From the IMG/VR virus record IMGVR_UViG_3300027747_002427: a DNA stretch of 64,000 nt; one strand, 5' to 3'. The notes under the pieces were generated by a model. It was not told the origin of the DNA. It ran no database searches and worked only from the letters and a program-made list of their open reading frames with translations. Below, piece by piece: positions 50,173 to 62,266 of this stretch. A program made the translations under genes and the position numbers. Within the stretch, counting starts at the first letter, position 1; the number at the start of each line of letters is the position of its first letter. The DNA comes from a virus (taxonomy: Duplodnaviria; Caudoviricetes).

Positions 50173-50207
50173 ACCCTAGGTGCAGCCGGCATTTGGGGTC
50201 CAGTTCA

Positions 50208-50236: not shown

Positions 50237-50437
50237 GCTTCGAATGCGCTAGGAATTTGAGCAGCCTCCAGTACCCTACCCTCGGATTGTCACACCCTGT
50301 TCGCCCTGTTATTTCGGATCGAGGCTCTTCCGTGTTCTGATTATGTATATATTCTATAGCAATATGGGGGAAACCTCAAGCCTATAATTTCTCAGAATCT
50401 TCTTTTCTTTTCCTACAATCCCTATTATAATAAGGGC

Positions 50438-50617
50438 ATGAAAAATAACAACACCACAGTAGACGAGTATTACGAGAACGTGATGAAGGCCGCTAAGACC
50501 CTGGAGGAGTACTATGAGAAGATGGCTAACTTCACTCCAGTTCCCGAGAACAAGAAGACCTATCAGATGTTTAGGAGGGAGATGAGGGATCTTTGGAAGA
50601 CCCACGCTGCCTATTAA
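50438..50617 (+). CDS. Early hypothetical protein, 59 aa MKNNN... (not in track)
   Basis: Cassette promoter; translated by hand to TAA at 50615-50617. Confidence 0.7.
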   Translation: MKNNNTTVDEYYENVMKAAKTLEEYYEKMANFTPVPENKKTYQMFRREMRDLWKTHAAY

Positions 50618-50656
50618 GATCTTGAGTTTTCCCACAATAACCTATATACTAAGAGT

Positions 50657-50896
50657 ATGAAAAATAAAAACAAGTACCCCATCAACGGATCGATCATGGA
50701 AGGCGTTAGTGTTCGCACAGGCGTCCATCAATATGATGATAAGAATAGAACGGTAGTAGAATTGACCTTCCAGGGCTATAATAGCTCCTATGTCCAGGTC
50801 ATAGATATTAACACCGCGGCGAGCCTTATTAAACAGCTTAGGGAGCAAGGTATTGCCCAGGCTGAGTATATTACAGCCGCCGAGGTATTCGCTTGA
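50657..50896 (+). CDS. Early hypothetical protein MKNKN...
   Basis: Cassette promoter TTGAGT-17-TATACT. Confidence 0.75.
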   Translation: MKNKNKYPINGSIMEGVSVRTGVHQYDDKNRTVVELTFQGYNSSYVQVIDINTAASLIKQLREQGIAQAEYITAAEVFA

Positions 50897-50927
50897 TCTT
50901 TCCCCCTAAAACCTATATACTAATAGT

Positions 50928-51176
50928 ATGAAAAATAAAGAATACACCATCAATACAGATCCCAAGGGCCTCGACTACATCATTGGTAACTACCATATGT
51001 ATCGAAGCGATGTCTACGATGCCTTGGAGAAGCTTCAGCAATACCTAGATGATTCTCACGTTAAAGCCGTTCTAGAGAGCGAGGATCCTGAGATTCAAGA
51101 GCGTTTGAGTGAGGAGTGCCTCCATCTTGACTTCACTACCTTTCTAGAGGATCTCAAAGGAGCCATGGGATACTAA
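50928..51176 (+). CDS. Early hypothetical protein MKNKE...
   Basis: Cassette promoter TTGATC-17-TATACT. Confidence 0.75.
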   Translation: MKNKEYTINTDPKGLDYIIGNYHMYRSDVYDALEKLQQYLDDSHVKAVLESEDPEIQERLSEECLHLDFTTFLEDLKGAMGY

Positions 51177-51184
51177 ATAGATAT

Positions 51185-51298
51185 ATGATCGAAGATACTA
51201 CCAAGCATCCGACTGGTGAGTTACCCCCTACTCCGGAGCCTCCTAAGTTCCCAGAGCCTGTGATAGCTCCCCCAGTACCTGCACCTACAAACGAATAA
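51185..51298 (+). CDS. 37-aa proline-rich peptide (not in track)
   Basis: MIEDTTKHPTGELPPTPEPPKFPEPVIAPPVPAPTNE; TAAATA ends 5 nt upstream. Confidence 0.4.
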   Translation: MIEDTTKHPTGELPPTPEPPKFPEPVIAPPVPAPTNE

Positions 51299-51351
51299 CC
51301 CTATCACATTTGGTTCTTGAGTTTTCCCACTAAACCCTTTATACTTAAAGT

Positions 51352-51537
51352 ATGAAAAATAAGAACACCGTAAAGGATATCGTCACCCACCTGGAGTCCA
51401 CGGGCAAGTCCCCGGACTACATCATCGGAACCCTGATGGCCATGCTCGATGGTCTCACCTATGAGTATAGTGGGACCGCGCAGCAGACCATCGATAGTTA
51501 CATCAACCACCACCTCAACCCCAATACCAACGCCTAA
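51352..51537 (+). CDS. Early hypothetical protein MKNKN... (KSPDYII motif)
   Basis: Cassette promoter. Confidence 0.75.
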   Translation: MKNKNTVKDIVTHLESTGKSPDYIIGTLMAMLDGLTYEYSGTAQQTIDSYINHHLNPNTNA

Positions 51538-51538
51538 T

Positions 51539-51877
51539 ATGGGAGCCTACATCTACCGCCTCAAGGGCAGCAAGGCCTTCACTCTGATGAAGATTGATGG
51601 CCAGATCCAGCGAGTCTATGACTACGTCTATTGGTACAAGCCTTACTATACCGGCATGTTCGAGAGTGAGCCTAAGTGGATGAAGCCTGTTCGAATGCTT
51701 GATACTCGCCTCCGTAACGCGTTTGCAAAGGTTGAGCCTGTTAAGTGGGTTCGCCACGTCAATGATATGGGAGAGAAAGATGACTACATTATGGAGTGGC
51801 CTGGCGGTATTAGCATTAGCGATTACAACGAGCGCTATCAGAATGCTCGTAGGATCCCAGTAAGCGATTTGGCTTGA
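51539..51877 (+). CDS. Early hypothetical protein MGAYIY...
   Basis: TAA-T-ATG coupling; the track start 51449 is an upstream extension. Confidence 0.7.
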   Translation: MGAYIYRLKGSKAFTLMKIDGQIQRVYDYVYWYKPYYTGMFESEPKWMKPVRMLDTRLRNAFAKVEPVKWVRHVNDMGEKDDYIMEWPGGISISDYNERYQNARRIPVSDLA

Positions 51878-51908
51878 GATTTCCCCCTAAACCCATTATA
51901 CTAATAGT

Positions 51909-52109
51909 ATGAAAAATAAAGACCACGACGAGATCATCACCACCCACAACCACCGCCTCATCCGCCTTGACGCCCAGAAGAAGTTCGTCGAGCAGATGAT
52001 TAAGGACCTTCAGGTGCAATATACTACCCTCAGCGATGACTGGGACGAGACCTGGAGGAGCCGGCAGTATTACATTAACAGAGAAGAAGAGAGTGCCGTT
52101 ACCACCTAA
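51909..52109 (+). CDS. Early hypothetical protein MKNKD...
   Basis: Cassette promoter. Confidence 0.75.
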   Translation: MKNKDHDEIITTHNHRLIRLDAQKKFVEQMIKDLQVQYTTLSDDWDETWRSRQYYINREEESAVTT

Positions 52110-52128
52110 ACCCTAGATAATAATATAT

Positions 52129-52572
52129 ATGAATAAGAAAGCCACCTCACCGCTCCTAGAGCTCACCGCCACCTCCTCCTATAATAGCCTCCAGAAGGCC
52201 GTAGAAGGCCGTTGTAAAGACCGTAGTCGCGAAGGCAATGTAGGTCTTACCTTCTCTATCTTTGAGACAAATAAGACCTTGGATAAGGGTCTGGATAGTG
52301 GAGACTGGATTGTCAATCACCCAGATATCTTTGATGAGGGCGCCGTATTCGAAGGTAAGTGCGTCTTCTATAGCGATTACTGGAGGATCTCTGATAAAGA
52401 GGTCTACAGCGAAGTAATGGAACACCCAAGCTGGAGGGAGATCATTAGCGAATGTAATCGCCAGTTGATTGATCAAGAGGATGGTAGCACCGCTTGCCTC
52501 TTCCTCGAGGGCTTTACCGAGATGGAACCTAAAGACGGAGTCCGAGTCTTCGAGATCGATTGGGGTTCTTAG
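52129..52572 (+). CDS. Early hypothetical acidic protein
   Basis: Variant cassette (GATAAT-7-ATG). Confidence 0.7.
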   Translation: MNKKATSPLLELTATSSYNSLQKAVEGRCKDRSREGNVGLTFSIFETNKTLDKGLDSGDWIVNHPDIFDEGAVFEGKCVFYSDYWRISDKEVYSEVMEHPSWREIISECNRQLIDQEDGSTACLFLEGFTEMEPKDGVRVFEIDWGS

Positions 52573-52610
52573 AGGTTGACCTTTCCCCCTAAATCCTTTA
52601 TACTAAGAGT

Positions 52611-52850
52611 ATGAAAAATAAAGCATATCAGTTCTCCATCATGTCGGAAGAAGAACGCTCTATACATCTCTTTTATACCATTGAAGGTATGGTAGAGACC
52701 TTAGAGCTGATTGGTAAGCAGCTTGATACAGAAGCTCTTAATGGAGCCTCTCGCCTCGCTAAGCTTGCAGATATTAACGAAGAGATCGAATTACTCTTCT
52801 TGAGAGTTCACAAAGACTACCACGCAAACAAAACCAAGGAAGCCATCTAA
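52611..52850 (+). CDS. Early hypothetical protein MKNKA...
   Basis: Cassette promoter TTGACC-17-TATACT. Confidence 0.75.
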   Translation: MKNKAYQFSIMSEEERSIHLFYTIEGMVETLELIGKQLDTEALNGASRLAKLADINEEIELLFLRVHKDYHANKTKEAI

Positions 52851-52851
52851 T

Positions 52852-53043
52852 ATGACCTATAGGAAACTAATCGCCCATCTCCAAGAGAAATACGCAGAGC
52901 ATCTGGATGATCCTGTAAAGCTCGAGTCTATGCACGATAACGCGATTTATCACGTGTTTAGCGCGCGTACAGCGCATAAAGATGTGCCTTATGACGACAT
53001 CAAAGAGGATGATCTCATTCTACTAATCGAATATCCACACTAA
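52852..53043 (+). CDS. Early hypothetical protein
   Basis: TAA-T-ATG coupling. Confidence 0.6.
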   Translation: MTYRKLIAHLQEKYAEHLDDPVKLESMHDNAIYHVFSARTAHKDVPYDDIKEDDLILLIEYPH

Positions 53044-53085
53044 TTGGGGGTTGACTTTTCCCCGGTAATCCGTTATACTAATAGT

Positions 53086-53757
53086 ATGAAAAATAAGAAC
53101 AAGCAAAAGAAGATTTCCAGGAAACAAGCCATCGCTGATTCCCGGGTACCAGTAAAGGTTTCCCGGAAACGTATTCCCAAGAACGAGCGTATCAACAAGG
53201 CAGACCAGTTTGAATACCTAGGAATTGATACCTGGGTAAAGACTTTCCAGGGAACTAAGAAGTTCCCACATAATAAGATTACCTGTTCTGAATGCCGGCA
53301 TAATACGGTTTCCATGTTTGGTAACCAGCTAGCGAATTACCTGGCAAAGTATAACGGGGATACCCGGAAACTCCTTACCGAGTTCAAGTGTCGCGTATGT
53401 CGTTCCCTGGACAAAGAGGCTATCAAGTTGAAGGAGCCTAAAGAGCCTAAGGTAAAGGTAGAAAAGGAAAAGGTATTCCTTTCCCCGGAAGAGTGGGAAG
53501 CTCGTAAGGAGGAGGTTCGTAAGACCCTTCCTAAGATGGATCCTAACTACCAAACCCAGGAAATCGATTTGGTTAAGGACAAGGAGACGTGTTCCCAGGT
53601 AACAGCCATGGCATGCTGGCGCCCAGACATCTTCCTCAATCTCGGATGCGCCGAGTGTGTTCTACAGAAGAATTGTGCTTGTCCAATTAAGGATATCAAT
53701 CGTATTCCAGACAATCGCCCAAGGAAATTCAAGAGGGCAGTAACGAAAGCCGCTTGA
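53086..53757 (+). CDS. Early basic Cys-rich (probable Zn-binding) protein MKNKN...
   Basis: CSEC...CRVC and C-x-C...CAEC...CAC clusters; promoter TTGACT(53051)-17-TATACT. Confidence 0.7.
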   Translation: MKNKNKQKKISRKQAIADSRVPVKVSRKRIPKNERINKADQFEYLGIDTWVKTFQGTKKFPHNKITCSECRHNTVSMFGNQLANYLAKYNGDTRKLLTEFKCRVCRSLDKEAIKLKEPKEPKVKVEKEKVFLSPEEWEARKEEVRKTLPKMDPNYQTQEIDLVKDKETCSQVTAMACWRPDIFLNLGCAECVLQKNCACPIKDINRIPDNRPRKFKRAVTKAA

Positions 53758-53787
53758 TAAACGTTTAACCTATAGTATTATTTTAAT

Positions 53788-54021
53788 ATGCACGTATGGC
53801 AATCAAAGAGAGTTTTAAAGACAGGACCTATCTACCAAGTACCTACTTGGGTAAAGAACCGACCGAAGGCAATAGCTACAGCGGACTGGGAGCAGATGGT
53901 AAAGGACTTCAAGTTCAACAAGCTTATTGTACTAGATAAGGTTCCTAAGACTAGTAAGAAAAAGAATTTCGCAACAAACGAAAGAAAGGAAAACAACAAC
54001 AATGACAAAAACAATCGCTAA
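53788..54021 (+). CDS. Early hypothetical protein
   Basis: TTGATA-16-TATTAT-6-ATG. Confidence 0.55.
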   Translation: MHVWQSKRVLKTGPIYQVPTWVKNRPKAIATADWEQMVKDFKFNKLIVLDKVPKTSKKKNFATNERKENNNNDKNNR

Positions 54022-54238
54022 TACGATCGTTCGCAATATCAGTGATCTCACTGGCCGCACTGTCTCCAGCCGTACAGGCAAGGCAGCAAAGCTTGAGCTG
54101 ATCTCTGAGAGCATCAATGAGAGTCGCTATGAGATTCTCGGTCTCGTTGGACGCAGTAATAACGTCATGCTTCGCCCACGTTTTCACAACGTGCGTAACA
54201 AGCAGGGCCGCTTCACTGCTCGCCGCCGCAGCCGCTAA
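54002..54238 (+). CDS. Early basic hypothetical protein (ends RNKQGRFTARRRSR)
   Basis: 78-aa ORF with GC-shifted codons. Confidence 0.6.
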   Translation: MTKTIANTIVRNISDLTGRTVSSRTGKAAKLELISESINESRYEILGLVGRSNNVMLRPRFHNVRNKQGRFTARRRSR

Positions 54239-54243
54239 AGATT

Positions 54244-54320
54244 AAGGGTCTAGTGAATAGATTGCAGGGAGAGCCTGCTCGGGAAGTTTTTATTCCTCAT
54301 TGAACACACTAGACCTTTTT
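54244..54320 (+). terminator. Branched terminator-like RNA element
   Basis: GGTCTAGTG/CACTAGACC outer stem enclosing GCAGG/CCTGC and GGGAA/TTCCT hairpins, followed by a T-tract. Confidence 0.55.
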
Positions 54321-54368
54321 CTTTCTTTTTAGATTGACATTTCCCCCTTAATCCTTTATTATATATAC

Positions 54369-54620
54369 ATGATTGATTCAAACCTGTATCGCAAAATTGA
54401 AATGGCCGGCGAAGCACTTCTCGCTGATTACAAGCTAACCTATCCTGATATGAGTGATAGTCAGATCCGTACAGATCTTCTTCTTAATCACGGATCGAAG
54501 GTTATACACATGAGTGTAGATAATGATCTCCTAGAAGGAATCATTGATAGCGATCGTCAAGACGATCCAGAGTACAAGGCTCTCCTTCTTATAGCTGGAG
54601 TATACTTCGTAACCCTCTAA
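54369..54620 (+). CDS. Early hypothetical protein
   Basis: TTGACA-17-TATTAT-6-ATG. Confidence 0.7.
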   Translation: MIDSNLYRKIEMAGEALLADYKLTYPDMSDSQIRTDLLLNHGSKVIHMSVDNDLLEGIIDSDRQDDPEYKALLLIAGVYFVTL

Positions 54621-54628
54621 CCCTTTAT

Positions 54629-54704
54629 GCCTGTGTAGTCCAACGGCAGAGACAAGCGACTTAAAATCGCTCCAGTATCGGTTCGAATCCGATCACAGGT
54701 ACCA
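54629..54704 (+). tRNA. trnL: tRNA-Leu(UAA), short variable loop, CCA encoded
   Basis: GCCTGTG/CACAGGT acceptor, AGCGA-CTTAAAA-TCGCT anticodon arm, ATCGG-TTCGAAT-CCGAT T arm; 76 nt. Confidence 0.9.
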
Positions 54705-54748
54705 CTTTAAGATTGACCTTTCCCACCAATTGCTATAATATATAAACA

Positions 54749-54892
54749 ATGAAACACCTCCTACACCTCTTAGGGTTTACTCAACGTAAGCCTTCACTCC
54801 TCCTCATGCATATGTGTGACGTCACTCACGGCACCTGGCTTCAGGATCTTTATCGTACCAATCGTCTTAGCGACTACAACGTAAAGAAGTAA
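54749..54892 (+). CDS. Early hypothetical 47-aa protein (not in track)
   Basis: TTGACC promoter at 54713; translated by hand. Confidence 0.5.
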   Translation: MKHLLHLLGFTQRKPSLLLMHMCDVTHGTWLQDLYRTNRLSDYNVKK

Positions 54893-54893
54893 C

Positions 54894-55115
54894 ATGATCT
54901 GGCCTAAAGACCCTCCAGTGACTCGTTCCGAATTCCGCCGAGCTTTGAATCTTCATTGTCATAATAAGCTTGGAGTCAGCTTCAGTGACCTTCCAGACAT
55001 TATCAATATCGATGACGTATGGTGGGAGGGACAGACCATTGGAGAAGCTCTCACTATGATTAACAGTTGTATTGAAGACTTTAAAGAAGAAATGGGTGTT
55101 GCACTTTCCCACTAA
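54894..55115 (+). CDS. Early hypothetical protein
   Basis: 73-aa ORF coupled to the previous stop. Confidence 0.6.
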   Translation: MIWPKDPPVTRSEFRRALNLHCHNKLGVSFSDLPDIINIDDVWWEGQTIGEALTMINSCIEDFKEEMGVALSH

Positions 55116-55136
55116 CAGGAGTATAATAATAATAAT

Positions 55137-55304
55137 ATGATCATCGAATTCTCACCTGGCAAGTTACCAAAGAGTAAAGAAGCTTTGAAGGATATTATCC
55201 TCGAAGCAGTCAAGAAGTCTTCAACGAACCCTGATGCCGTTAATGCCGGCCGACAGCCTCAGGACAATAATACAAAGGCCGGCGTTACTCAATATGCAAA
55301 CTAA
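55137..55304 (+). CDS. Early hypothetical 55-aa protein (not in track)
   Basis: TTGCAC-17-TATAAT-9-ATG. Confidence 0.5.
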   Translation: MIIEFSPGKLPKSKEALKDIILEAVKKSSTNPDAVNAGRQPQDNNTKAGVTQYAN

Positions 55305-55512
55305 AGTCACACTCACGGATCTAATTCGTAATATCTTGACCGCAGAGCAGGAGTTGTCCGTAAAGGATATCCTTACTAAAGTACAAGAGACTATTGCAGG
55401 CGAGCAGCTGACCATCAAGGCCGATTACCGTAAGGTTTATCGTCACCTTCGTACGTGCGCCACTAAGACGGCACGCGGTCAGTTCTCCCTCACCGAGACC
55501 TCTGCCTCCTAA
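55294..55512 (+). CDS. Small winged-HTH-like protein
   Basis: LIRNIL...LSVKDILTKV...VYRHL...RGQFSL pattern; ATG 55294 is preferred to the track start 55234. Confidence 0.5.
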   Translation: MQTKVTLTDLIRNILTAEQELSVKDILTKVQETIAGEQLTIKADYRKVYRHLRTCATKTARGQFSLTETSAS

Positions 55513-55536
55513 AGGTAAGTCTCGGCAACCATCAAC

Positions 55537-55627
55537 ACTGGGTTAATGTAATTGGAAGCATCGCACAGCTTATATCTGTGAATCCCTAGATGAGGGACGA
55601 GCATCGGTTCGATTCCGATACCCAGTA
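55537..55627 (+). tRNA. Atypical tRNA with UAU (Ile) anticodon and 22-nt variable region containing a hairpin
   Basis: ACTGGGT/ACCCAGT acceptor plus A73, ATGT/GCAT D stem with GG, CACAG-CTTATAT-CTGTG anticodon arm, TCCCT/AGGGA extra stem, ATCGG-TTCGATT-CCGAT T arm. Confidence 0.75.
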
Positions 55628-55633
55628 CTTTTT

Positions 55634-55810
55634 ATGACAGACACCAACACAACATCGAAAGAAGCAAAAGTATTCGCACTCTGCCAGGACCTGGAAGATA
55701 TGCGAGATCGTAAGAAGGCATCTAGCAAAGCCTTTAGCGATGAGATCAAGCGTATTCAAGCGGAGATCAAGGATCTTATAGATCCTTCCGAGCCTGAAGA
55801 AGCTCCATAG
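55634..55810 (+). CDS. 58-aa coiled-coil protein between tRNAs (not in track)
   Basis: MTDTNTTSKEAKVFALCQDLEDMRDRKK...; translated by hand. Confidence 0.55.
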   Translation: MTDTNTTSKEAKVFALCQDLEDMRDRKKASSKAFSDEIKRIQAEIKDLIDPSEPEEAP

Positions 55811-55816
55811 TATTAC

Positions 55817-55889
55817 GCCCTTGTAGCTCAATGGTCAGAGCAGTCGGCTCATAACTGATTGGTTGGGGGTTCGAATCCCTCCGGGGGCA
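55817..55889 (+). tRNA. tRNA with CAU anticodon (elongator Met or Ile2)
   Basis: GCCCTTG/CGGGGGC acceptor (G1-C72, so not initiator), GTCGG-CTCATAA-CTGAT anticodon arm; CCA not encoded. Confidence 0.9.
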
Positions 55890-55895
55890 CTCTAT

Positions 55896-55971
55896 GCATC
55901 GGTAGCTCAGTGGATAGAGCAGGGGTTTTCTAAACCCTTGGTCGCAGGTTCGATCCCTGCCCGATGTACCA
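55896..55971 (+). tRNA. trnR: tRNA-Arg(UCU), CCA encoded
   Basis: GCATCGG/CCGATGT acceptor, GGGGT-TTTCTAA-ACCCT anticodon arm. Confidence 0.92.
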
Positions 55972-55974
55972 TTT

Positions 55975-56046
55975 GGAATCGTAGCTCAATGGTAGAGCAG
56001 TAGACTTTTAATCTATTGGTTATGGGTTCGAGTCCCATCGATTCCA
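55975..56046 (+). tRNA. trnK: tRNA-Lys(UUU)
   Basis: GGAATCG/CGATTCC acceptor, GTAGA-CTTTTAA-TCTAT anticodon arm; CCA not encoded. Confidence 0.92.
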
Positions 56047-56127
56047 CTTTAATACAACAGCATGATATAATAGCGCCGGCCTCTCTATTATCGTGAATTT
56101 TCCCACTAAATGATTGATACTAATAGT

Positions 56128-56298: not shown

Positions 56299-56302
56299 TA
56301 AT

Positions 56303-56671
56303 ATGGCAACACGTTCCCAAGTTAAGTTCTCCGATCGCGGAGTAGTCGCAGCTAATATCTATGTCCACTATGATGGATACCCAGAAGGTGAAGCTGGTCG
56401 TCTCAATCAGCTTCAGCGCTTCTTTAAGTGTGTGAAGGAGAATTGCAGAGACACTCGCTTTCATGATGCAGAGTATCTTGCAGCCAAGTACATCGTTTGG
56501 TATGCTACAGAGTATTGTAAGGATGAGGAGAATCCCAAGCATGCTCTAGACTTCTCAGGCATTGGAATCTGTCTCGAGGACCATGGTGACATTGAGTACA
56601 CCTACCTGGTTGATTGTGACCATCACGATCCAGAGACTGGGTTCCCTACCGTCGATGTTAGGAAGCGGTAA
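56303..56671 (+). CDS. Conserved phage protein MATRS...IYVHYDGYP
   Basis: Recognisable N-terminal and HxDGYP motif; ATG 56303 just after the previous stop. Confidence 0.7.
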   Translation: MATRSQVKFSDRGVVAANIYVHYDGYPEGEAGRLNQLQRFFKCVKENCRDTRFHDAEYLAAKYIVWYATEYCKDEENPKHALDFSGIGICLEDHGDIEYTYLVDCDHHDPETGFPTVDVRKR

Positions 56672-56738
56672 CATTTGAGGTGGTAAGGGGGGAAAGATTG
56701 TGGTGGTCTTTCCCCCCAAATCTCTTTATACTAAGAGT

Positions 56739-56891
56739 ATGAAAAATAAGAACACCGTCAAAGCCACCACAGTCATCAAGAACATCCGCCGCATGATCAG
56801 CCAGCCGGCCATGCAGGGACCGAAGCACCAGGCCTGGAGGGAGTCCTGGTTGCACGTCATCAAAGGTCTTGAGAGGGGCGAATCGATTTGA
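56739..56891 (+). CDS. Early hypothetical protein MKNKN...
   Basis: Cassette promoter. Confidence 0.7.
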   Translation: MKNKNTVKATTVIKNIRRMISQPAMQGPKHQAWRESWLHVIKGLERGESI

Positions 56892-56922
56892 TTTTCCCCC
56901 ATAAATCCTAGATAATAAATGT

Positions 56923-57147
56923 ATGAAAAATAAGAACACATTCGAAGAGATCATGAACGAGTACAAGGCCCTGGACCAGATGTTCAAGCAGATGGTCCGC
57001 AACACCGCGGTGATGGAGCTCAAGGAGTGGGGCGTCGAGGAGATCGGAAGCTCGGACGTGAACTGCCAGATCGTCGACCTCTACAACAGCTACGGCGGAT
57101 TCGACGAGATTGTCCGACATGGGTTGGACCTTGTCCGTAGCCGATAA
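56923..57147 (+). CDS. Early hypothetical protein MKNKN...
   Basis: TTGATT-17-GATAAT-6-ATG. Confidence 0.75.
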   Translation: MKNKNTFEEIMNEYKALDQMFKQMVRNTAVMELKEWGVEEIGSSDVNCQIVDLYNSYGGFDEIVRHGLDLVRSR

Positions 57148-57185
57148 GGATTGAAATTCCCACCTAAACCTCATATAATAATAGT

Positions 57186-57506
57186 ATGAAAATTAAGAAT
57201 GCACGTATGCAGTGGAGCAATGAAAAGCGTACCACGAAGTCCGTCCTCTACTTCTTCCCGGTTGGAGAGACCATCATAGACAACCTCGCTATGCGCCGTA
57301 AACGCCCTATAAAAGAGTTTCGCGCACTTATACCTGAAGTATGCGCAGCAGTAGGTCTCAATATGGCAGACCATAAGTTCAGCTGGAGCCAGAAGGCAGG
57401 TTGCTCTTGCGGTTGCTCGCCTGGCTTCGTAGTAAAGCATCTCTATAGTAAGCAGATCTTCTGCGATGTTACCATGGACAATGACTTCGAGGGTCTTGGC
57501 CTTTAA
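57186..57506 (+). CDS. Early protein with WSQKAGCSCGCSPGF motif
   Basis: TTGAAA-17-TATAAT-6-ATG. Confidence 0.75.
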   Translation: MKIKNARMQWSNEKRTTKSVLYFFPVGETIIDNLAMRRKRPIKEFRALIPEVCAAVGLNMADHKFSWSQKAGCSCGCSPGFVVKHLYSKQIFCDVTMDNDFEGLGL

Positions 57507-57543
57507 GATTGTCTTTCCCACCTAAACCCAATATAATAATAGT

Positions 57544-57816
57544 ATGAAAATTAAACAATACGTTATAGACCTCCTCACGTTCGGCTTCGTTGCTCTGGCC
57601 TTCAGTGCAGCAAGCGCCGGCCTCACCGCTGCCTACTATCAGCACCTCGCCGTGGTTCACAATGCCGCAACGTACGAGGCAAGCAGCTGGGGTAATGTAA
57701 GCTTCCACTGGAACGATGTTAGCTACGCGCAAGCACCCTTCCAAGACCCAGCGGAGACCCAGAAGAAAATGGATGACGCCTTCGCTAAAGAACTCAAAGC
57801 CAAAGGCATCAAGTAA
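57544..57816 (+). CDS. Early membrane-anchored or secreted protein MKIKQ...
   Basis: Hydrophobic N-terminal helix; cassette promoter. Confidence 0.7.
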   Translation: MKIKQYVIDLLTFGFVALAFSAASAGLTAAYYQHLAVVHNAATYEASSWGNVSFHWNDVSYAQAPFQDPAETQKKMDDAFAKELKAKGIK

Positions 57817-57835
57817 CACCTAACACCTACCTAAT

Positions 57836-58060
57836 ATGAAAATCACAGCTTCCACTAAAGAGAAACTTAAGCACGTGTCCTATGTAGTCGAGGACGTACC
57901 TAACTTCGGAACAGCCATTTACACTGATGTGTACAACGAGAATGATAGGATAGTCGATAGCTTCATTCGTACCGAAGACGGATACGCAATCGAAGCACCG
58001 GCTCTCTTCGAGACCATTCAGGACTTTGTATGCAGCAATAGTGTTGAGGTTTCTCCCTAA
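57836..58060 (+). CDS. Early hypothetical protein
   Basis: CCTAATATG start; 74 aa. Confidence 0.65.
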   Translation: MKITASTKEKLKHVSYVVEDVPNFGTAIYTDVYNENDRIVDSFIRTEDGYAIEAPALFETIQDFVCSNSVEVSP

Positions 58061-58078
58061 ATGCTTTATACTAAGAGT

Positions 58079-58399
58079 ATGAAAAATAAGAACACCACAC
58101 TGACCGAGCTCGAAACCCAAATCCTCACCCTCCTGTTCAAGGACGCCGAGGGCAACGGCCACGACTTCGGCATCATCGAGAACCTCAGCGACTACGAAGG
58201 CGTCGACATGAAGGTCGCGCGCGGAGTCCTCAGCTCCCTGGTCCAGAAAGACATCATCACCATCCACGAGTATCGCTTCGAGATGGGAATGGAACAGGGC
58301 TGCACCCAGTTCACCTGGAACCACGTTCCCGCCGATATCTACCCAGAGAGCATCACCCACGTACTCCCAGAGAATGTAACCCTGGGAGTTGCAGCTTGA
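58079..58399 (+). CDS. Early winged-helix-like protein MKNKN...
   Basis: LTELETQIL...VARGVLSSLVQKDIITI pattern; TTGAGG-17-TATACT-6-ATG. Confidence 0.65.
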   Translation: MKNKNTTLTELETQILTLLFKDAEGNGHDFGIIENLSDYEGVDMKVARGVLSSLVQKDIITIHEYRFEMGMEQGCTQFTWNHVPADIYPESITHVLPENVTLGVAA

Positions 58400-58430
58400 G
58401 ATTCCCACCTAAACATAATATAATAATAGT

Positions 58431-58673
58431 ATGAAAAATAAGAACATCCACCAACAGTATCAGGAAATCATCGACTCCATCAAGGCCCTCGGCACGGTCC
58501 GCATCCAGGAGGCTCTGGCGAACCTCGAGAAGGACTTCCAACTAACCTCCAACGTCTATGCTCGTATGGGACTCCTCGGAAGGATCCAGATGCATGAGAG
58601 GGCTCTCAAGGAGCTTACCAACACCGAGAAGAGCCTGGAGATCCTCGACGAAGCCTTTGCCACCCACGCCTAA
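58431..58673 (+). CDS. Early helical protein MKNKN...
   Basis: Cassette promoter. Confidence 0.75.
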   Translation: MKNKNIHQQYQEIIDSIKALGTVRIQEALANLEKDFQLTSNVYARMGLLGRIQMHERALKELTNTEKSLEILDEAFATHA

Positions 58674-58674
58674 T

Positions 58675-58827
58675 ATGGAACAACCTCCTAAAGATTATCA
58701 ACTGAAGTTAGTCATCGAGAAGCTGGAGAAGAGTTTAGACAAGCTCTCTGTCCTCGAATACGAAATCAAAGACGCCCTAATGTTAGCAGCAGACCTCTAC
58801 GAGAGAATCACCAACAACAACGACTAA
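58675..58827 (+). CDS. Early hypothetical protein
   Basis: TAA-T-ATG coupling. Confidence 0.6.
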   Translation: MEQPPKDYQLKLVIEKLEKSLDKLSVLEYEIKDALMLAADLYERITNNND

Positions 58828-58828
58828 T

Positions 58829-59068
58829 ATGAAGATCGAAACCAAAGCCTACGAAGTCCTAGAAGAGCTGATGGACGGAACCAACAAGCTAGAGAAGCTC
58901 TATAGAGCAGCAACTCATCGCCCAGACTCACCTTGGATTGAGAAGCCAGGACGCTTCGCAGACTGGGTAGGAGGCCAAATGCTAGAGGCCATGGAAGAAG
59001 AGCTTAGGCACCTAGAGCAGAGGTTCATTACAGATGAAGCTCTCCTAGCCATGGTAGATAAGAGCTAA
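58829..59068 (+). CDS. Early hypothetical protein
   Basis: TAA-T-ATG coupling. Confidence 0.65.
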   Translation: MKIETKAYEVLEELMDGTNKLEKLYRAATHRPDSPWIEKPGRFADWVGGQMLEAMEEELRHLEQRFITDEALLAMVDKS

Positions 59069-59094
59069 TATCATTTTCATACCCGCGGTGGGGT

Positions 59095-59130
59095 AAGGGA
59101 GGAGGTCTGTGGTGGGCCTCCTCCCTTTTT
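59095..59130 (+). terminator. Rho-independent terminator
   Basis: AAGGGAGGAGGTC/GGCCTCCTCCCTT stem followed by a T-tract. Confidence 0.8.
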
Positions 59131-59168
59131 GTATTGTCTTTCCCCCATAAAGAGATTATAATAATAGT

Positions 59169-59534
59169 ATGAAAATTGAGAACACCACACCCACCGAAGC
59201 CCAAATCGAACTCGCCGGATACCTCCTCACGCGCGAGGTAACCTTCACCGAGGAGTGCGAGGCCAACCCCAAGATCCAGTGGTTCGCCGTGGCCAGCTAC
59301 ACCCTCGAGGACATCATGGGCCTCACCCCCTACCGCAGCGGCTACGCGGACATCGCCGAGTACGAGCACCAGGAGGACCTCATCGAGGCCAAGGAGGCTC
59401 GTAAGAACTCCTACTATGACTACGACGACGAGCAGCGCGCCTGGTTCGAGAAGGAAGAAGAGGCTCATCGAAACGCTCTCAAGGAGCTGGTGAGTTCCGA
59501 GTACAAGCCACTGGGGGTAGGACTCCCCCTTTAA
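59169..59534 (+). CDS. Early acidic protein MKIEN...
   Basis: TTGTCT-17-TATAAT-6-ATG. Confidence 0.75.
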   Translation: MKIENTTPTEAQIELAGYLLTREVTFTEECEANPKIQWFAVASYTLEDIMGLTPYRSGYADIAEYEHQEDLIEAKEARKNSYYDYDDEQRAWFEKEEEAHRNALKELVSSEYKPLGVGLPL

Positions 59535-59572
59535 GGCTTGGCTTTCCCCCTTACTTGATAGATAATAATAGT

Positions 59573-59803
59573 ATGAACAATAAGATCACCATTGGAGAGT
59601 TAAAGAAAGGTCAGCGATTCAAGTACGGCAACAGCGGCATCTATGAGTGCGCCAACCCGTACTGGCCTCAGGCCCGGAACCCAGCCTACCGCTCAGCTAA
59701 GATCATCGTGGTAGTTCCATCAATCAACCCGGAGGCTACCTACCCAACAGTACCAGGCCAGTGTGTCACCTTCAATCACAGGACCAAAGTGGAGCTCCTT
59801 TAG
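59573..59803 (+). CDS. Early small beta protein MNNKI...
   Basis: TTGGCT-17-GATAAT-6-ATG. Confidence 0.7.
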   Translation: MNNKITIGELKKGQRFKYGNSGIYECANPYWPQARNPAYRSAKIIVVVPSINPEATYPTVPGQCVTFNHRTKVELL

Positions 59804-59840
59804 ACTTTCTTTTCCCCCATAACCATTATATAATAATAGT

Positions 59841-60062
59841 ATGAAAAATAAGAACATCGAAGTAGGTTCCATCGTCACCCTCAACTCCAACACCGATCGT
59901 GTCCACCGCGTCACCAAGGTCGATGAGTTCGGCATCTGCACAACGCCAGCGGGAGGCCAGCCAGAGTACCAGTCCAGGTACGGCTCCTTCCCTCTCGCTT
60001 CCTGGGAGGTTGTTACCCTCGCTACAGAGGAGCAGCTCAAGCTAGTAGGCACCTGGCGCTAA
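59841..60062 (+). CDS. Early small SH3/KOW-like protein MKNKNIEVGSIV...
   Basis: IEVGSIVTL...VTKV pattern; cassette promoter. Confidence 0.65.
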   Translation: MKNKNIEVGSIVTLNSNTDRVHRVTKVDEFGICTTPAGGQPEYQSRYGSFPLASWEVVTLATEEQLKLVGTWR

Positions 60063-60101
60063 GGGGTTGACCTTTCCCCCATTATAGGTTATACTTATAG
60101 T

Positions 60102-60404
60102 ATGAAAAATAAGAAGACCCAATACACCGCCACAGCCCCTAACGGAGACGTCCTCAGCGTCACCTCCACGCGCCCGCTGGTCGAGTGCCACGTCGCCATC
60201 AACAAGGAGACCAACGCCACGGGAGCCTACCGCTGGACCATCAAGCGCCAGGGCAAGGCCTCCGCCTCCTCCTGCGGCTACAGCTTCGGCTACGTGGGTA
60301 GCTGGTGCACGGACGCTGCCAAGTACAATGCCGAGGCCGACAAAGAGAAGGCCTTGCGCAACGCCAAGTACACCTTCCACATCGTCCCAGTGGTCGCCGC
60401 CTAA
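60102..60404 (+). CDS. Early hypothetical protein MKNKK...
   Basis: TTGACC-17-TATACT-6-ATG. Confidence 0.75.
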   Translation: MKNKKTQYTATAPNGDVLSVTSTRPLVECHVAINKETNATGAYRWTIKRQGKASASSCGYSFGYVGSWCTDAAKYNAEADKEKALRNAKYTFHIVPVVAA

Positions 60405-60408
60405 GCTT

Positions 60409-60570
60409 AACGACCGCGGTCGGATACCTACCGGTCTTAATAGCGACCAGGGGTAATACTACCGACCGCGGTATGCTAGGACCCCGGACGTTCAAATTTG
60501 TTAATAGGGGAATAGCAAGCAGAAACGGCCGGGGGGCAATCCCGCGTATATAGGGGGGTACCCTGGTATT
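60409..60570. other. GC-rich non-coding block with CGACCGCGGTCG palindromes at the right edge of the GC-shifted array
   Basis: CGACCGCGGTCG at 60411-60422, CGACCGCGGT at 60463-60472, and G-runs. Confidence 0.55.
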
Positions 60571-60624
60571 AAATCGCCAAAGTATTAAATTGCTATTCCC
60601 TTATATAAGTAATAATATATTTTA

Positions 60625-60993
60625 TATGAAAAATAAAGATCAAATCATGTTAGAGTCTCTGTATACTAATAGTATGAAAAATAAGAACACCAAGCCCGCC
60701 CTCAAAGCTCTCTTCCCTGGCCAGGAGGTCTCTGTAATGGGCTTCAGGGAGTATGGTAAAGTTATCGAGCGTCAAAAGGAGAAGGTTATGGGCAATACTG
60801 TCTATAGGGTCAAGTGTGAGGGTAAGGAGTTTAATGTATCTCGCCGTCAACTTGGCGTTCGAGTTAACAATATCTTTAAGTTCGGTCCTTACAATACAAC
60901 CGATCTTCCTGCTTGAAGTTCTAATCAAATTCCCTTATACTAATAGTATGAAAAATAAAGATCAAATCATGTTAGAGTCTCTGTATACTAATA
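60625..60993 (+). repeat. 47-bp exact direct repeat spanning two gene starts
   Basis: TATGAAAAATAAAGATCAAATCATGTTAGAGTCTCTGTATACTAATA at 60625-60671 and 60947-60993. Confidence 0.95.
60626..60916 (+). CDS. Chimeric-looking protein MKNKDQIMLESLYTNS-MKNKN... (second in-frame cassette start at 60674)
   Basis: TTGCTA-17-TAATAT-7-ATG; internal TATACTAATAGT-ATGAAAAATAAG. Confidence 0.65.
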   Translation: MKNKDQIMLESLYTNSMKNKNTKPALKALFPGQEVSVMGFREYGKVIERQKEKVMGNTVYRVKCEGKEFNVSRRQLGVRVNNIFKFGPYNTTDLPA

Positions 60994-61358
60994 AGGTATT
61001 GAAAGAGGACGAAGAGAATGGAGATAATGTATTAAAGAAGTATACCTATGAGATTCTTTATAGAACTGATTACAAATATGATCCTAAGACAAAGAAGGCT
61101 ATAAGTTGGTCTTATGGTTCTCATTCTAGAGGTTGGCCGGATCTCCGACATGAATTTGCTTATTCTGATGATGATTTTTGGTCTAAGATAGATGATTCTG
61201 GATATAGTGGTGGTAAGGATGAATTAAGAAAATCCATAGTTATTAAAAATGTTGAACCTGCTGATTTGAGAGAGGTTGAGCATGAGAAGAGAAAAAATAA
61301 GGCTATATCAGATTATTATAGTAATGCGAGTAAGACGGGTTCTTATTCGGGTGATTAG
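60948..61358 (+). CDS. Hypothetical protein MKNKDQIMLESLY...
   Basis: TTGAAG-17-TATACT-6-ATG; the track start 60753 lies upstream of this promoter. Confidence 0.7.
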   Translation: MKNKDQIMLESLYTNKVLKEDEENGDNVLKKYTYEILYRTDYKYDPKTKKAISWSYGSHSRGWPDLRHEFAYSDDDFWSKIDDSGYSGGKDELRKSIVIKNVEPADLREVEHEKRKNKAISDYYSNASKTGSYSGD

Positions 61359-61380
61359 AGGAGGTTTCAGTTTAATAAAG

Positions 61381-61408
61381 AAAAAGGACTCTTCGGAGTC
61401 CTTTTTTT
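61381..61408 (+). terminator. Bidirectional Rho-independent terminator
   Basis: AAAAAGGACTC-TTCG-GAGTCCTTTTTTT. Confidence 0.9.
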
Positions 61409-61444
61409 ATTGTTTTTCTTTTATGATCTCTTATAATAGAGACT

Positions 61445-61621
61445 ATGAAAATTACTCGTTATGAACCAATATTAGCTGATTGGGGAGAACCGGATATGGT
61501 AGAGGATGATTATGGTTTTTATGTTACTCATTATGAATATACTAAGCTTTTAGAGAAGTATAAGCAATTAAAGAAAGAGAATAGAGAGCTTAAAAAGGCT
61601 TTTGAAGATGAGTATGATTGA
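61445..61621 (+). CDS. 58-aa hypothetical protein (not in track)
   Basis: TTGTTT-16-TATAAT-7-ATG; coiled-coil C-terminus. Confidence 0.55.
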   Translation: MKITRYEPILADWGEPDMVEDDYGFYVTHYEYTKLLEKYKQLKKENRELKKAFEDEYD

Positions 61622-61820
61622 TTCTAAGAAGATAGCAGTTAAGTTAGGTCATCTCTCTATTGGTAGAGGTATCTATGATAGAGATGGAAAGAAGTATGTA
61701 AATCCTCATACCTTTGGAGATGATGTATATTTGGAAGATCCTACTAACTATCATTATATAAAGTATGAGAATGGTAAATTTGTAGATAGTGATGGATTTG
61801 TTATCTATATCAATTTTTAA
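61608..61820 (+). CDS. Hypothetical protein
   Basis: ~70-aa ORF overlapping the previous stop. Confidence 0.55.
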   Translation: MSMIDSKKIAVKLGHLSIGRGIYDRDGKKYVNPHTFGDDVYLEDPTNYHYIKYENGKFVDSDGFVIYINF

Positions 61821-61858
61821 GGGTTGAGGTTTCCCTTATAATTTACTATTATATATAC

Positions 61859-62266
61859 ATGCTTAAAAGAGATAATTGGACCATAGAAGAAGCAGAAGAT
61901 ATTCTATTAGGGAATACTATTGCCTATACTAAGAGAAACGGAGTCGCTATTGATGATCCGGAGTTCTATAGGAACATGGATCGTAATAAGGGTATCTATA
62001 AGGTTATTAATGATGTTAAGACTTCTCAGAAGTCTATTTGGACTAATAATGAGCTTATAGACCATATTGATAATAATCAGTTTAAGATGGATGATTCCTG
62101 GACCAAAGAGGAATGGGACTCTAAGGGACAATGGAATCAAGGTTTAGAACAATGTGCTATTCAATTTGGAGACTTTAAAGAAGATCCTGAAGAGTCCTAT
62201 AGTGCAATGGCCTATGATACTGAAACAAAGCGAATTTATGTTATTTCCCAACCACTACCACAATGA
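61859..62266 (+). CDS. Hypothetical protein
   Basis: TTGAGG-17-TATTAT-6-ATG. Confidence 0.7.
   Translation: MLKRDNWTIEEAEDILLGNTIAYTKRNGVAIDDPEFYRNMDRNKGIYKVINDVKTSQKSIWTNNELIDHIDNNQFKMDDSWTKEEWDSKGQWNQGLEQCAIQFGDFKEDPEESYSAMAYDTETKRIYVISQPLPQ

Follow-up and report, generated by a model that had tools for sequence, protein, structure and literature searches.

Phage SPO1, in its host-takeover module, and phage T4, in its early promoter clusters, possess dense strong early promoters and many small genes of unknown function. These genes are leadered and have Shine-Dalgarno (SD) sites. We know of no description of shared N-terminal codons in these clusters.

Promoter-early stem-loops (PeSLs) of T4-type phages (Arbiol et al., 2010, PMC2839356; Comeau et al., 2014, PMC4122927) were proposed to be homologous-recombination handles with their own expression signals (PMC2839356, PMC4122927). 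By definition, a PeSL includes a stem-loop terminator, an SD site and a start codon at the 3' end (PMC2839356). Leaderless genes occur in bacteria (PMC3160421), and in Deinococcus-Thermus the -10 region is adjacent to ORFs (PMC12340547). Leaderless middle and late transcripts of Thermus phage phiYS40 (Sevostyanova et al., 2007) are summarised in PMC3594737.

Gene-shuffling cassettes are already known from T4-type phages; the units considered here would be a leaderless variant of these. They were identified in a stretch of viral DNA of 64,000 nucleotides (the window), and the arrays recur in five related viral contigs. Each unit is probably a leaderless, mostly stem-loop-free cassette of the PeSL type, acting both as an expression signal and as a handle for homologous recombination in an early-gene hyperplastic region.

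General features of the phage and the array

The contig belongs to a far-T4-like phage from lake metagenomes. It contains T4-like core genes, such as those for Gp23 (4e-92), the T4 portal (2e-97), and a gp44-like clamp loader. The GC content of the array is 44-51% versus 27-39% elsewhere. None of the array proteins could be assigned to a Pfam family above the curated cut-off or to a PHROG family with known function. Comparison of the array ORFs with their orthologues in the closest relative, G003, gave dN/dS values of 0.07-0.22 for all but one of the 15 pairs that allowed the computation, and these ORFs are, judging from such ratios, real genes under purifying selection. The features of the array and its surroundings are as follows.

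50403..61408, + strand: whole array; about 40 small ORFs, 21 cassettes, 5 tRNA genes, bidirectional terminator at the end
49900..50400, strand not assigned: ORF-poor divergent promoter region left of the array
42949..43001, + strand: outlier class-B cassette, ATG 42984 (MKNN)
45962..46014, + strand: outlier class-B cassette, ATG 45997 (MIST)
50403..50455, + strand: cassette, ATG 50438 (MKNN), degenerate -35 (TTTTCT)
50622..50674, + strand: cassette, ATG 50657 (MKNK)
50893..50945, + strand: cassette, ATG 50928 (MKNK); bounds an indel, in comparison with G003, as its left repeat
51317..51369, + strand: cassette, ATG 51352 (MKNK); bounds that indel as its right repeat
51874..51926, + strand: cassette, ATG 51909 (MKNK)
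52576..52628, + strand: cassette, ATG 52611 (MKNK); a second gene, coupled through TAATATG, follows at 52852
53051..53103, + strand: cassette, ATG 53086 (MKNKNK...)
54334..54386, + strand: class-B cassette, ATG 54369 (MIDS); long hairpin at about 54250-54325 and T-run upstream
54629..56047, + strand: tRNA cluster within the array; Leu-TAA, Ile-TAT (92 nt), Met-CAT, Arg-TCT, Lys-TTT
54713..54751, + strand: variant promoter, -35 and C-tract as in the cassettes, 9 nt from -10 box to ATG 54749
55099..55139, + strand: variant promoter TTGCAC-TTTCCCAC...TATAAT, 9 nt, ATG 55137
56093..56145, + strand: cassette, ATG 56128 (MKNN), GTG replacing TTG
56687..56756, + strand: cassette, ATG 56739 (MKNK), with 14-bp G-run/C-run hairpin 56687-56717 (z=-5.4)
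56888..56940, + strand: cassette, ATG 56923 (MKNK)
57151..57203, + strand: cassette, ATG 57186 (MKIK)
57509..57561, + strand: cassette, ATG 57544 (MKIK); homology with G003 stops at -10/ATG
58044..58096, + strand: cassette, ATG 58079 (MKNK)
58396..58448, + strand: cassette, ATG 58431 (MKNK)
59095..59186, + strand: terminator hairpin 59095-59127 (15 bp, then T-run; z=-5.6) and cassette, ATG 59169 (MKIE)
59538..59590, + strand: cassette, ATG 59573 (MNNK); G003 shares the cassette alone here
59806..59858, + strand: cassette, ATG 59841 (MKNK), degenerate -35
60067..60119, + strand: cassette, ATG 60102 (MKNK)
60913..60965, + strand: cassette, ATG 60948 (MKNKDQIMLE...), spacer like the G001/G002 type
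61379..61408, strand not assigned: bidirectional terminator-like hairpin, end of the transcribed block
61824..61876, + strand: class-B cassette, ATG 61859 (MLKR)

Structure of the repeat unit

The 53-bp unit consists of TTGACN, a 17-nt spacer opening with TTTCCC, TATACT, 6 nt (AATAGT), and ATGAAAAATAAGAAC. It is present in 21 copies within 50403-61876 and in two upstream copies, on the + strand every time. A degenerate pattern (TTG, TTYCC, WATAMT, 6 nt, ATGAA; up to 2 mismatches allowed) matched 21 times in the window, never on the - strand, versus 0.00 expected from 100 dinucleotide shuffles. The weight matrix built from the unit copies gave, at a score of at least 20, 23 hits on the + strand of the window and 0 on the - strand. 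The original prediction of at least 21 units with outliers at 42984 and 45997 was thus confirmed, and so was the invariant geometry that it described: the A of the ATG is located 35 nt downstream of the T of TTG, with the 17-nt spacer and 6 nt from the -10 hexamer to the ATG. At two extra promoters (ATGs 54749 and 55137), this last distance is 9 nt instead of 6.

The N-termini of cassette ORFs are MKNK or MKNN (n=15), MKI (n=3), or MNNK (n=1). A sub-class with TATTAT-ATATAC-ATG and without MKNK, class B, includes four copies (42984, 45997, 54369, and 61859). The array proteins of the window yielded a single linked pair in BLASTP (E<=1e-5), 60626/60948, via the first 15 residues only; these shared starts do stand on otherwise unrelated ORFs, as had been claimed.

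Clear hairpins were revealed at 2 of the 23 cassettes (56687-56717 and 59095-59127; z about -5.5), or at up to 5 if the weak ones at cassettes 53086, 59573, and 61859 are included. The remaining copies folded no better than shuffled sequences. The hairpin at 56687-56717 encloses the -35 position, making the ATG-56739 cassette the most PeSL-like copy, while the terminator hairpin directly before the ATG-59169 cassette has the classic PeSL layout. In two copies, the C-run forms the 3' arm of a G-run/C-run hairpin.

The region left of the array (49900..50400) contains three promoters on the - strand (near 50379, 50236, and 49947) and one on the + strand (50144-50172). They display the -35 and C-tract design of the cassettes, one of them with ATA in place of ATG.

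A total of 91 cassettes were found in the six viral records. TTG occupies -35..-33 in 80 of these, the -10 hexamer lies at -12..-7 in 89, and GT at -2/-1 in 83, followed by ATGAAAAaTAA. The original description suggested the C-tract of the spacer as a possible site for a phage regulator; TTCC at -29..-26 is conserved in the six phages.

Transcription and initiation of translation

RNA contigs of metatranscriptome X4, which are unstranded and assembled and whose ends are set by repeat-induced graph breaks, cover positions 50034-61340, and coverage of the flanks (about 8 kb) is near zero. The last coverage falls into bin 60676-61342, with none beyond. A DNA run, unlike the X4 RNA, covers the whole stretch. 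The array is a transcribed block, and one RNA contig, 50334-50573, spans its first promoter.

The units resemble sigma-70-type promoters, for which the canonical +1, as predicted from the geometry, should be the A of the ATG. The sequence around this position has a canonical 6-nt discriminator and T at -1. SD-like 4-mers at -18..-4 were detected in 7 of 99 non-array genes versus 8 of 99 in the control window, and the SD motif was absent phage-wide from the upstream sequences, including those of the cassette genes. The original prediction of a promoter-like unit with the start site on the A of the ATG and no SD is in this sense supported as a sequence prediction from geometry. Late-type TAAATA boxes peak 6-7 nt before the ATG (12 genes). 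Since no gene has an SD site and TAAATA abuts the starts, the leaderless design appears to be phage-wide and not specific to the array. The suggestion that cassettes resist a shut-off of leadered translation gained no support, for the same reasons.

Most units have no terminator and, therefore, read-through RNAs with internal cassettes must exist. The cassette ATGs in such RNAs are internal, still without an SD, and leaderless initiation is therefore not the sole route. These RNAs, the rarity of terminators at cassettes, the lack of SD sites in all phage genes, and the RNA contig across the first promoter also fit another explanation, which we consider unlikely. Namely, the unit could be mainly an SD-independent internal translation-initiation region served by few upstream promoters, in which the AU-rich TATACTAATAGT and the A-rich codons offer a landing site in an SD-ignoring host and the likeness to -35/-10 is secondary. 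However, TTG is placed exactly 17 nt before the -10 hexamer in 80 of the 91 cassettes, and the conserved -35-proximal TTCC would be useless to an RNA landing site. Promoters of the -35/C-tract/-10 design that lack an ATG are present on the - strand, and second genes do without the element, via TAATATG coupling.

Conservation of the unit and of the first codons

The -12..+11 core is shared by the six phages, the orthologous genes of which show dS near 1. This implies selection across lineages and not only homogenising within a genome. It is, therefore, quite improbable that the likeness beyond the promoter hexamers is mere concerted evolution by duplication and gene conversion, devoid of function, although module duplicates do exist and the flavour of the spacer differs by genome (TTTCCCCC in the window and G003; TTCC..TTCC in G001 and G002).

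Codon 2 is AAA in 18 of 18 cases of Lys, while gene bodies use AAG in 75%; codon 3 is AAT in 16 of 16 cases of Asn, compared to 41% AAT in gene bodies. At codons 2-3, synonymous positions are invariant in spite of an opposing local codon bias, which points to a nucleic-acid signal. In the MKI, MNN, and MEN variants, it is the nucleotide pattern that is retained, not the residues. In codons 4-6, conservation follows ordinary codon usage and could act at the protein level. Proteins of the same families in the relatives start with MKNK where a cassette stands in front and otherwise where it does not, which supports the original claim that the promoter carries the first codons along.

We assign a low probability to the view that MKNK(N) is a protein-level tag, i.e. 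a degron or a targeting or processing signal for joint handling of early proteins, and that DNA conservation is secondary. The fixed synonymous sites of codons 2-3 and the variants that preserve nucleotides over residues argue against it, as do the cassette-less orthologues, which have no tag yet are under purifying selection. What such a tag would account for is the conserved K and N at positions 4-5, with third codon positions of ordinary usage, as well as a longer second shared N-terminus, MKNKDQIMLESLYTN, present on four otherwise unrelated proteins.

Exchange of gene modules

Comparison of the window with G003 revealed three indels that extend from one cassette to another and have their crossover within the repeat, as well as three gene replacements with divergence at ATG+8..16. 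The ends of homology blocks fell into cassette windows in 11 of 24 cases, these windows making up 11% of the sequence (P=1.8e-5). For G001 and G005, 7 of 14 homology ends were in cassettes (P=0.002), and modules were duplicated and reordered. The gene order relative to the more distant G002 is scrambled, and gene content differs among the relatives. Both the gain, loss and replacement of genes with breakpoints in the cassette and the non-fixed gene order that had been anticipated were, accordingly, observed among the relatives.

Individual junctions are of several kinds. The same cassette as at ATG 56128 is present in G003 with a different gene behind it. The G003 orthologue of the ATG-53086 gene starts with MKKKKPKK and has a different -10/ATG module in front. 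One homology block with G003 begins at the variant promoter 55099..55139. Crossover positions vary inside the repeat, being located in the C-tract, in the -10, or after the ATG. Junctions at varying points of a 53-bp direct repeat are the signature of homologous recombination, not of a fixed cleavage site, and agree with the published mechanism of T4-type PeSLs (PMC2839356, PMC4122927). Gene-sized indels would end near a cassette under any mechanism, because the cassette makes up nearly the whole intergenic space; it is the in-register junctions that favour homologous recombination. Joints in assembled contigs were out of register or reflected cross-mapping of repeats; neither recombinant molecules nor excised mini-circles with one chimeric cassette, which are a feature of PeSLs, were seen in these contigs. 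UvsY was found in G001 and G002.

An integron-like platform for capture by site-specific recombination at the cassette is very improbable: gene-sized modules do vary among relatives at cassette boundaries, but each has its own promoter with no shared Pc, crossover points vary in the repeat as in homology-driven exchange, and the tyrosine integrase (PF00589) was not found in G000-G003 (completeness about 50% for G000 and 91% for G001), the control being positive in 14 of 14 genomes. Of the original description of an integrase-free, integron-like platform, the first part held, while the second did not, given the lack of attC and of a single promoter and the junctions that vary in a direct repeat.

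Proposed function of the cassettes

Under the preferred reading, a PeSL-type leaderless cassette, the array would correspond to the hyperplastic region that holds the early genes of an uncultured far-T4-like freshwater phage. Each unit would act as a strong sigma-70-type early promoter, from which transcription starts at the A of the ATG and gives a leaderless mRNA. About 15 further nt (AAA AAT AAG AAC ...) may be part of the expression signal, as an A-rich unstructured 5' end that aids promoter escape, ribosome loading on the 5'-terminal AUG, or both; MKNK(N) would therefore be largely a by-product. Second genes of a unit would be translated via stop-start coupling (TAATATG). As most units have no terminator, the transcripts should be nested and read through.

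The 53 bp recur every 200-600 bp in frame register and would, therefore, be substrates on which homologous recombination by the phage itself could act. Such recombination may delete, insert, duplicate, replace, and reorder modules, with N-termini swapped in frame. The cassettes would thus act as T4-type PeSLs minus the SD site and, mostly, minus the stem-loop.

More tentatively, promoter, start site, start codon, and the first 5-6 codons may be fused in a portable 53-bp element that is promoter, leaderless-translation enhancer, and in-frame joint at once, in a phage that relies entirely on leaderless SD-free mRNAs, possibly with a phage-encoded bS21. If this is true, an ORF recombined behind the element would be expressed at once, without a UTR.

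Comparison with described systems

The locus resembles integrons in that promoter-proximal small gene modules stand in an array and differ among relatives. Unlike integrons, it has a promoter for every module and junctions of the homology type, and it has neither an integrase nor attC/attI. The dense strong early promoters before many small genes are shared with the early clusters of SPO1 and T4.

A -10 box fixed a few nucleotides before the start, as a combined promoter and leaderless signal, is common to the cassettes and the bacterial genes described in PMC12340547 and PMC3160421. The latter, however, are features of host genomes, mostly have no -35 box, and show neither a conserved coding extension nor a repeat array. 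According to the summary in PMC3594737, phiYS40 is likewise a large lytic phage in which most transcripts of a temporal class are leaderless and initiation is SD-independent. Its leaderless classes, as given there, are middle and late, whereas here both the early-type -35/-10 and the late-type TAAATA abut the starts. Conserved first codons and cassette shuffling are not described in that summary for phiYS40, and the present phage, unlike phiYS40, is T4-like and comes from temperate lakes.

The closest similarity is to PeSLs, which are also repeated strong sigma-70-like early promoters directly before ORFans in hyperplastic regions of T4-like genomes, with indels and replacements between related phages flanked by cassettes. 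In contrast to PeSLs, a clear hairpin is present in only 2 of the 23 copies here, there is no SD, and just 6 nt separate the -10 box from the ATG. Conservation reaches about 18 nt into the ORF, so that recombination would swap N-termini in frame.

Cassette sequence and geometry

Direct reading of positions 50300-56300 revealed a repeated unit consisting of TTGAGT, 17 nt beginning with TTTCCC, TATACT, AAGAGT, and then ATGAAAAATAA. Searching the 64 kb of the window with a degenerate pattern of this unit (the cassette; copies are named by the position of their ATG) gave 21 copies, every one on the + strand, versus 0.00 in 100 dinucleotide shuffles. A weight matrix trained on these copies gave 23 matches on the + strand and none on the - strand. 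The positions obtained are those listed in the original prediction, which confirms the array and its two outliers.

50403-61876, + strand: 21 cassettes; the array of about 40 small ORFs spans 50403-61408
42984 and 45997, + strand: two further cassettes outside the array
42984, 45997, 54369, and 61859, + strand: four copies of a second sub-class (class B), TATTAT-ATATAC-ATG, without MKNK codons
54749 and 55137 (ATGs): promoters with a cassette-type -35 box and C-tract, but located 9 nt ahead of the ATG
51539, 52852, 56303, 57836, 58829, and 62468: second genes of units, beginning at TAATATG or close variants

The claimed fixed geometry was borne out. The TTG is located 35 nt upstream of the A of the ATG, the spacer comprises 17 nt, and 6 nt separate the -10 box from the ATG, without variation in the window. 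Across six viral records, namely the IMG/VR record containing the window (G000) and five related ones (G001-G005), the -10 hexamer occupies -12 to -7 in 89 of 91 cassettes, TTG is found at -35 to -33 in 80, and G-2/T-1 in 83. All six phages retain TTCC at -29 to -26; a second TCC, less strongly conserved, follows some 11 nt further on. This C-tract may serve the host polymerase as a spacer element, offer a phage regulator its site, or represent a remnant half-hairpin. At 56739 it does pair as one half of a hairpin, and at 53086 and 61859 it does so in part, but this is not a general feature. An operator formed by the 13-nt palindrome over the -10 box and ATG (ATACTA-A-TAGTAT) was rejected because TATAAT and GATCGT variants destroy the symmetry without compensation. 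The Bacteroidota-type promoter motif (TAnnTTTG) is absent from the cassette. Many cassettes of G001, G004, and G005 (loci L037, L042, and L043) have a GATC within the discriminator (TATACT-GATCGT-ATG), which lies 2-5 nt upstream of the predicted start and could be methylated by a Dam-type enzyme.

Predicted promoter function and leaderless start

The hexamers and the 17-nt spacing of the cassette correspond to the sigma-70 consensus. With a -10 hexamer at -12 to -7, transcription canonically starts at the seventh base after it. Applied to the cassette, this established promoter geometry predicts the A of the ATG as +1, with T at -1. So rigid a distance between promoter and start codon would have no rationale were a leader transcribed, and the cassettes are plausible leaderless promoters.

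The absence of Shine-Dalgarno (SD) sequences is not special to the array. SD-like 4-mers at -18 to -4 were present in 7 of 99 non-array genes versus 8 of 99 in a control window, and in 12 genes a T4-late-like TAAATA box peaks 6-7 nt ahead of the ATG. Messages thus appear to be SD-free and largely leaderless throughout the phage. This weakens the proposal that the array in particular escapes when leadered translation is shut off; that proposal is not supported. The TAATATG starts of second genes imply termination-reinitiation. A search for AsiA gave no match, and the positive control was equally silent.

A homolog of ribosomal protein bS21 (PF01165, 50.7 bits) is encoded in the 91%-complete record G001 (L054:1495-1677; G001:C1:167046-167228); none was found in G000, itself half-complete. 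Given the SD-free design, a phage bS21 may bias ribosomes towards phage messages.

Conservation of the first codons

Products of the cassette ORFs begin with MKNK or MKNN (15), MKI (3), or MNNK (1). AAA encodes all 18 Lys residues at codon 2, and AAT all 16 Asn residues at codon 3, while in the bodies of the window's cassette genes AAG accounts for 75% of Lys codons and AAT for 41% of Asn codons. Variant starts retain the nucleotide pattern and not the residue (ATT for AAT, GAA for AAA). Furthermore, ATGAAAAATAAGAAC is conserved across five other phages, and dS is near 1 for the orthologous genes compared between the window and its closest relative, G003. The fixed codons 2-3, this conservation, and the dS values together indicate selection at the nucleic acid level, acting at least on positions +4 to +9. 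The conserved first codons would then form part of a leaderless expression signal, by providing an A-rich, unstructured 5' end and/or the initial transcribed sequence. A role at the protein level is conceivable for K4/N5, since codons 4-5 (AAR AAC) show only the third positions of ordinary usage.

The product of 53086 in the window begins with MKNKNKQKK-ISRKQAIADSRVP. Its ortholog in G003 (86% identical) begins with MKKKKPKK-LSRKQAIADSRVP; a class-B -10/ATG module precedes it by about 80 nt, the -35 box and C-tract being otherwise identical. Several other protein families also occur both with and without the MKNK start. Judged from these comparisons, the first residues are a property of the cassette and not of the protein.

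A 15-residue N-terminus, MK(N/D)xD(Q/T)I(M/I)LE..Y.N, is common to four otherwise unrelated proteins (+ strand ORF starts 46967, 60626, 60948, and 62831), three of which are located behind late-type TAAGTA/TAAATA boxes. It is reminiscent of the T4 capsid-targeting leaders, which the prohead protease cuts after (L/I)xE, and is a second shared-N-terminus phenomenon, separate from the MKNK cassette.

Probable recombination at the cassettes

Over the array, the window is collinear with G003 (111.6 kb), and orthologous proteins are 60-90% identical. With the exception of 51352, dN/dS values are low (0.07-0.22), which shows that the small array ORFs are real genes. Each of three window-specific insertions has two flanking cassettes where G003 possesses one; upstream of a switch point this single cassette agrees with the left window copy, and downstream of it with the right one.

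Switch points in the single G003 cassette at window-specific insertions
50438: just after the ATG
50928+51185: between the -10 box and the ATG
56739: in the C-tract

In three gene replacements relative to G003, the cassette is in common and divergence begins at ATG+8 to +16 or at the -10 box. Between the window and G003, 11 of 24 homology-block ends fall in cassette windows, which make up 11% of the array (binomial P=1.8e-5), with the caveat that the cassette fills nearly all intergenic space, so that gene-sized events end nearby regardless. A twelfth end lies on the variant promoter at 55098. In the independent pair G001/G005, 7 of 14 ends are located in cassettes (P=0.002), and modules are duplicated and reordered. 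Duplicates within the G001 array (L037) include 3117-3360 / 5117-5351 and 4442-4705 / 6502-6667, for example two MKIEIPDTTI genes. The order of shared genes is scrambled relative to G002. In the more distant pairs G001/G002, G002/G004, and G004/G005, the breakpoint test found alignment left in gene interiors only. Module 51352-51537 differs from its G003 counterpart (G003a 9738) by a dS of 0.13 with a dN/dS of 0.89, while dS of neighboring orthologs is 0.7-1.3; this suggests that lineages recently exchanged this one module laterally.

Junctions that are in register at variable points of the repeat indicate homologous recombination. A UvsY homolog is encoded in G001 and also, below the curated cut-off, in G002. 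No tyrosine integrase was found in four records; the control was positive in 14 of 14 genomes. Thus, of the interpretation attached to the confirmed observation, the role of a recombination handle is supported by the insertion and replacement junctions inside cassettes and the scrambled gene order relative to G002, whereas the integron analogy, like shut-off resistance, is not. Contig joints were rejected as recombinants: 50673>59158 is out of register with one side of only 20 nt, and others reflect cross-mapping of cassette copies or the 60626/60948 paralog repeat.

Array genes and codon usage

Array proteins of the window formed one BLASTP pair at E<=1e-5 (60626/60948), via the first 15 residues alone. 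None matched a Pfam family above the curated cut-off or a PHROG family of known function. The GC content of the array is 44-51% versus 27-39% elsewhere, and GC3 is 0.56 (50400-61400) versus 0.20 in the remainder of G000. Five tRNA genes are located within the array: Leu-UAA, Ile-UAU, Met, Arg-UCU, and Lys-UUU. The codons AAA, AGA, AUA, and UUA, read by four of these tRNAs, make up 42-65% of their families elsewhere and 9-29% in the array. These two codon regimes are compatible with an adaptation of early genes to the tRNA pool of the host, or with a foreign origin of the array genes. The Ile(UAU) tRNA (55537-55628) is unusually long (92 nt), scores lower in Rfam than the other four (42.5 bits), and may contain a long variable arm or an insertion. 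The Rfam search over 47.5-62.5 kb detected tRNAs only.

The ORF-poor region 49400-50400 contains G-rich and C-rich runs as well as three - strand and one + strand promoters with the cassette-type -35/C-tract design, one of which has ATA at the position of the cassette ATG. An RNA contig from metatranscriptome run X4 covers 50034-50326, and the region has no match in Rfam. It may specify non-coding RNAs or serve in control or as an origin.

Transcription of the array

The array is represented in the lake metatranscriptomes X4, X10, and X13. RNA contigs from X4 (unstranded Logan assemblies, broken at repeats) span 50034-61340 at a word depth of 6-21, while RNA is at or near zero over 44.0-50.0 kb and 61.3-63.3 kb. 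The DNA run covers the region evenly, including the flanks with little or no X4 RNA. Accordingly, this block is transcribed and does not represent DNA carry-over. One RNA contig (50334-50573) crosses the first promoter of the array. Contig ends were rejected as indicators of start sites, since they coincide with repeat-induced breaks also present in the DNA run. In metagenomic run X1, array contigs (51724-60654) have a word depth of about 18-23, as compared to 12.8 (44001-51753) and 12.5 (60964-63313) in the flanks, which suggests that more than one co-occurring genotype has the central array in common.

Phage identity and host

The window belongs to an IMG/VR viral record of 106.8 kb with an estimated completeness of about 50%. 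It differs from G000:C1:11014-75013 at 13 positions and probably derives from a longer, almost identical assembly. It encodes T4-type Gp23, portal, and scaffold proteins and a gp44-like clamp loader. Gp23 is 34-36% identical to those of the nearest GenBank phages, which are cyanomyoviruses; identity this low identifies a far-T4-like phage. A nucleotide search against GenBank phages gave tRNA matches only, and one structural protein had no match there. DNA of this phage is present in freshwater and lake metagenomes of several studies. The cassette is not enriched in G006, a record whose Gp23 is 62% identical, so the element is restricted to a narrower clade. Two routes to the host were rejected: MAGs containing gp23 relatives (Bacteriovoracaceae, Terrimicrobiaceae, Proteobacteria, and others) look like mis-binning, and comparison of the phage bS21 with ribosome structures did not discriminate species.

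Comparison with known systems

Gene turnover in T4-type phages is proposed to be driven mainly by promoter-early stem-loop (PeSL) cassettes. Leaderless translation tends to be regarded as a curiosity except in Actinobacteria, Deinococcus-Thermus, and archaea. PeSL-like shuffling and a predicted leaderless design meet here in an abundant, transcriptionally active lineage of lake phages. About 90 near-identical promoter/5'-coding units ahead of unrelated ORFs form a natural series, which offers data on the downstream requirements of a 5'-terminal AUG, on the share of the N-terminus set by expression signals versus protein function, and on modular exchange driven by short in-frame repeats. Together with the tRNA genes in the array, the two contrasting codon regimes make a testable case of early genes tuned to the host tRNA pool.

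PeSLs are repeated sigma-70-like early promoters ahead of ORFans in hyperplastic regions, where they mediate modular shuffling; they are known from T4-type coliphages, vibriophages, and others (PMC2839356, PMC4122927). The lake-phage cassettes behave alike as repeated early promoters with modular shuffling. By definition, however, a PeSL includes a stem-loop terminator, and its 3' end comprises the SD and start codon (PMC2839356). The lake-phage cassettes have no SD, conservation continues into the ORF, and convincing hairpins occur at only two sites, 56687-56717 (a G-run/C-run enclosing the -35 position) and 59095-59127. A precedent for phage-wide leaderless transcription is Thermus phage phiYS40, for which leaderless middle and late transcript classes are described (PMC3594737). 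In Deinococcus-Thermus hosts, a -10 box adjoining the ORF is common (PMC12340547). In our literature search, which was not exhaustive, no T4-like phage was described as having early cassettes that are leaderless or first codons that are conserved. The array is best classed as a PeSL-type element in a new form, leaderless and mostly without a stem-loop, carried by a freshwater lineage of T4-like phages that is itself new and in which all genes appear to be SD-free.
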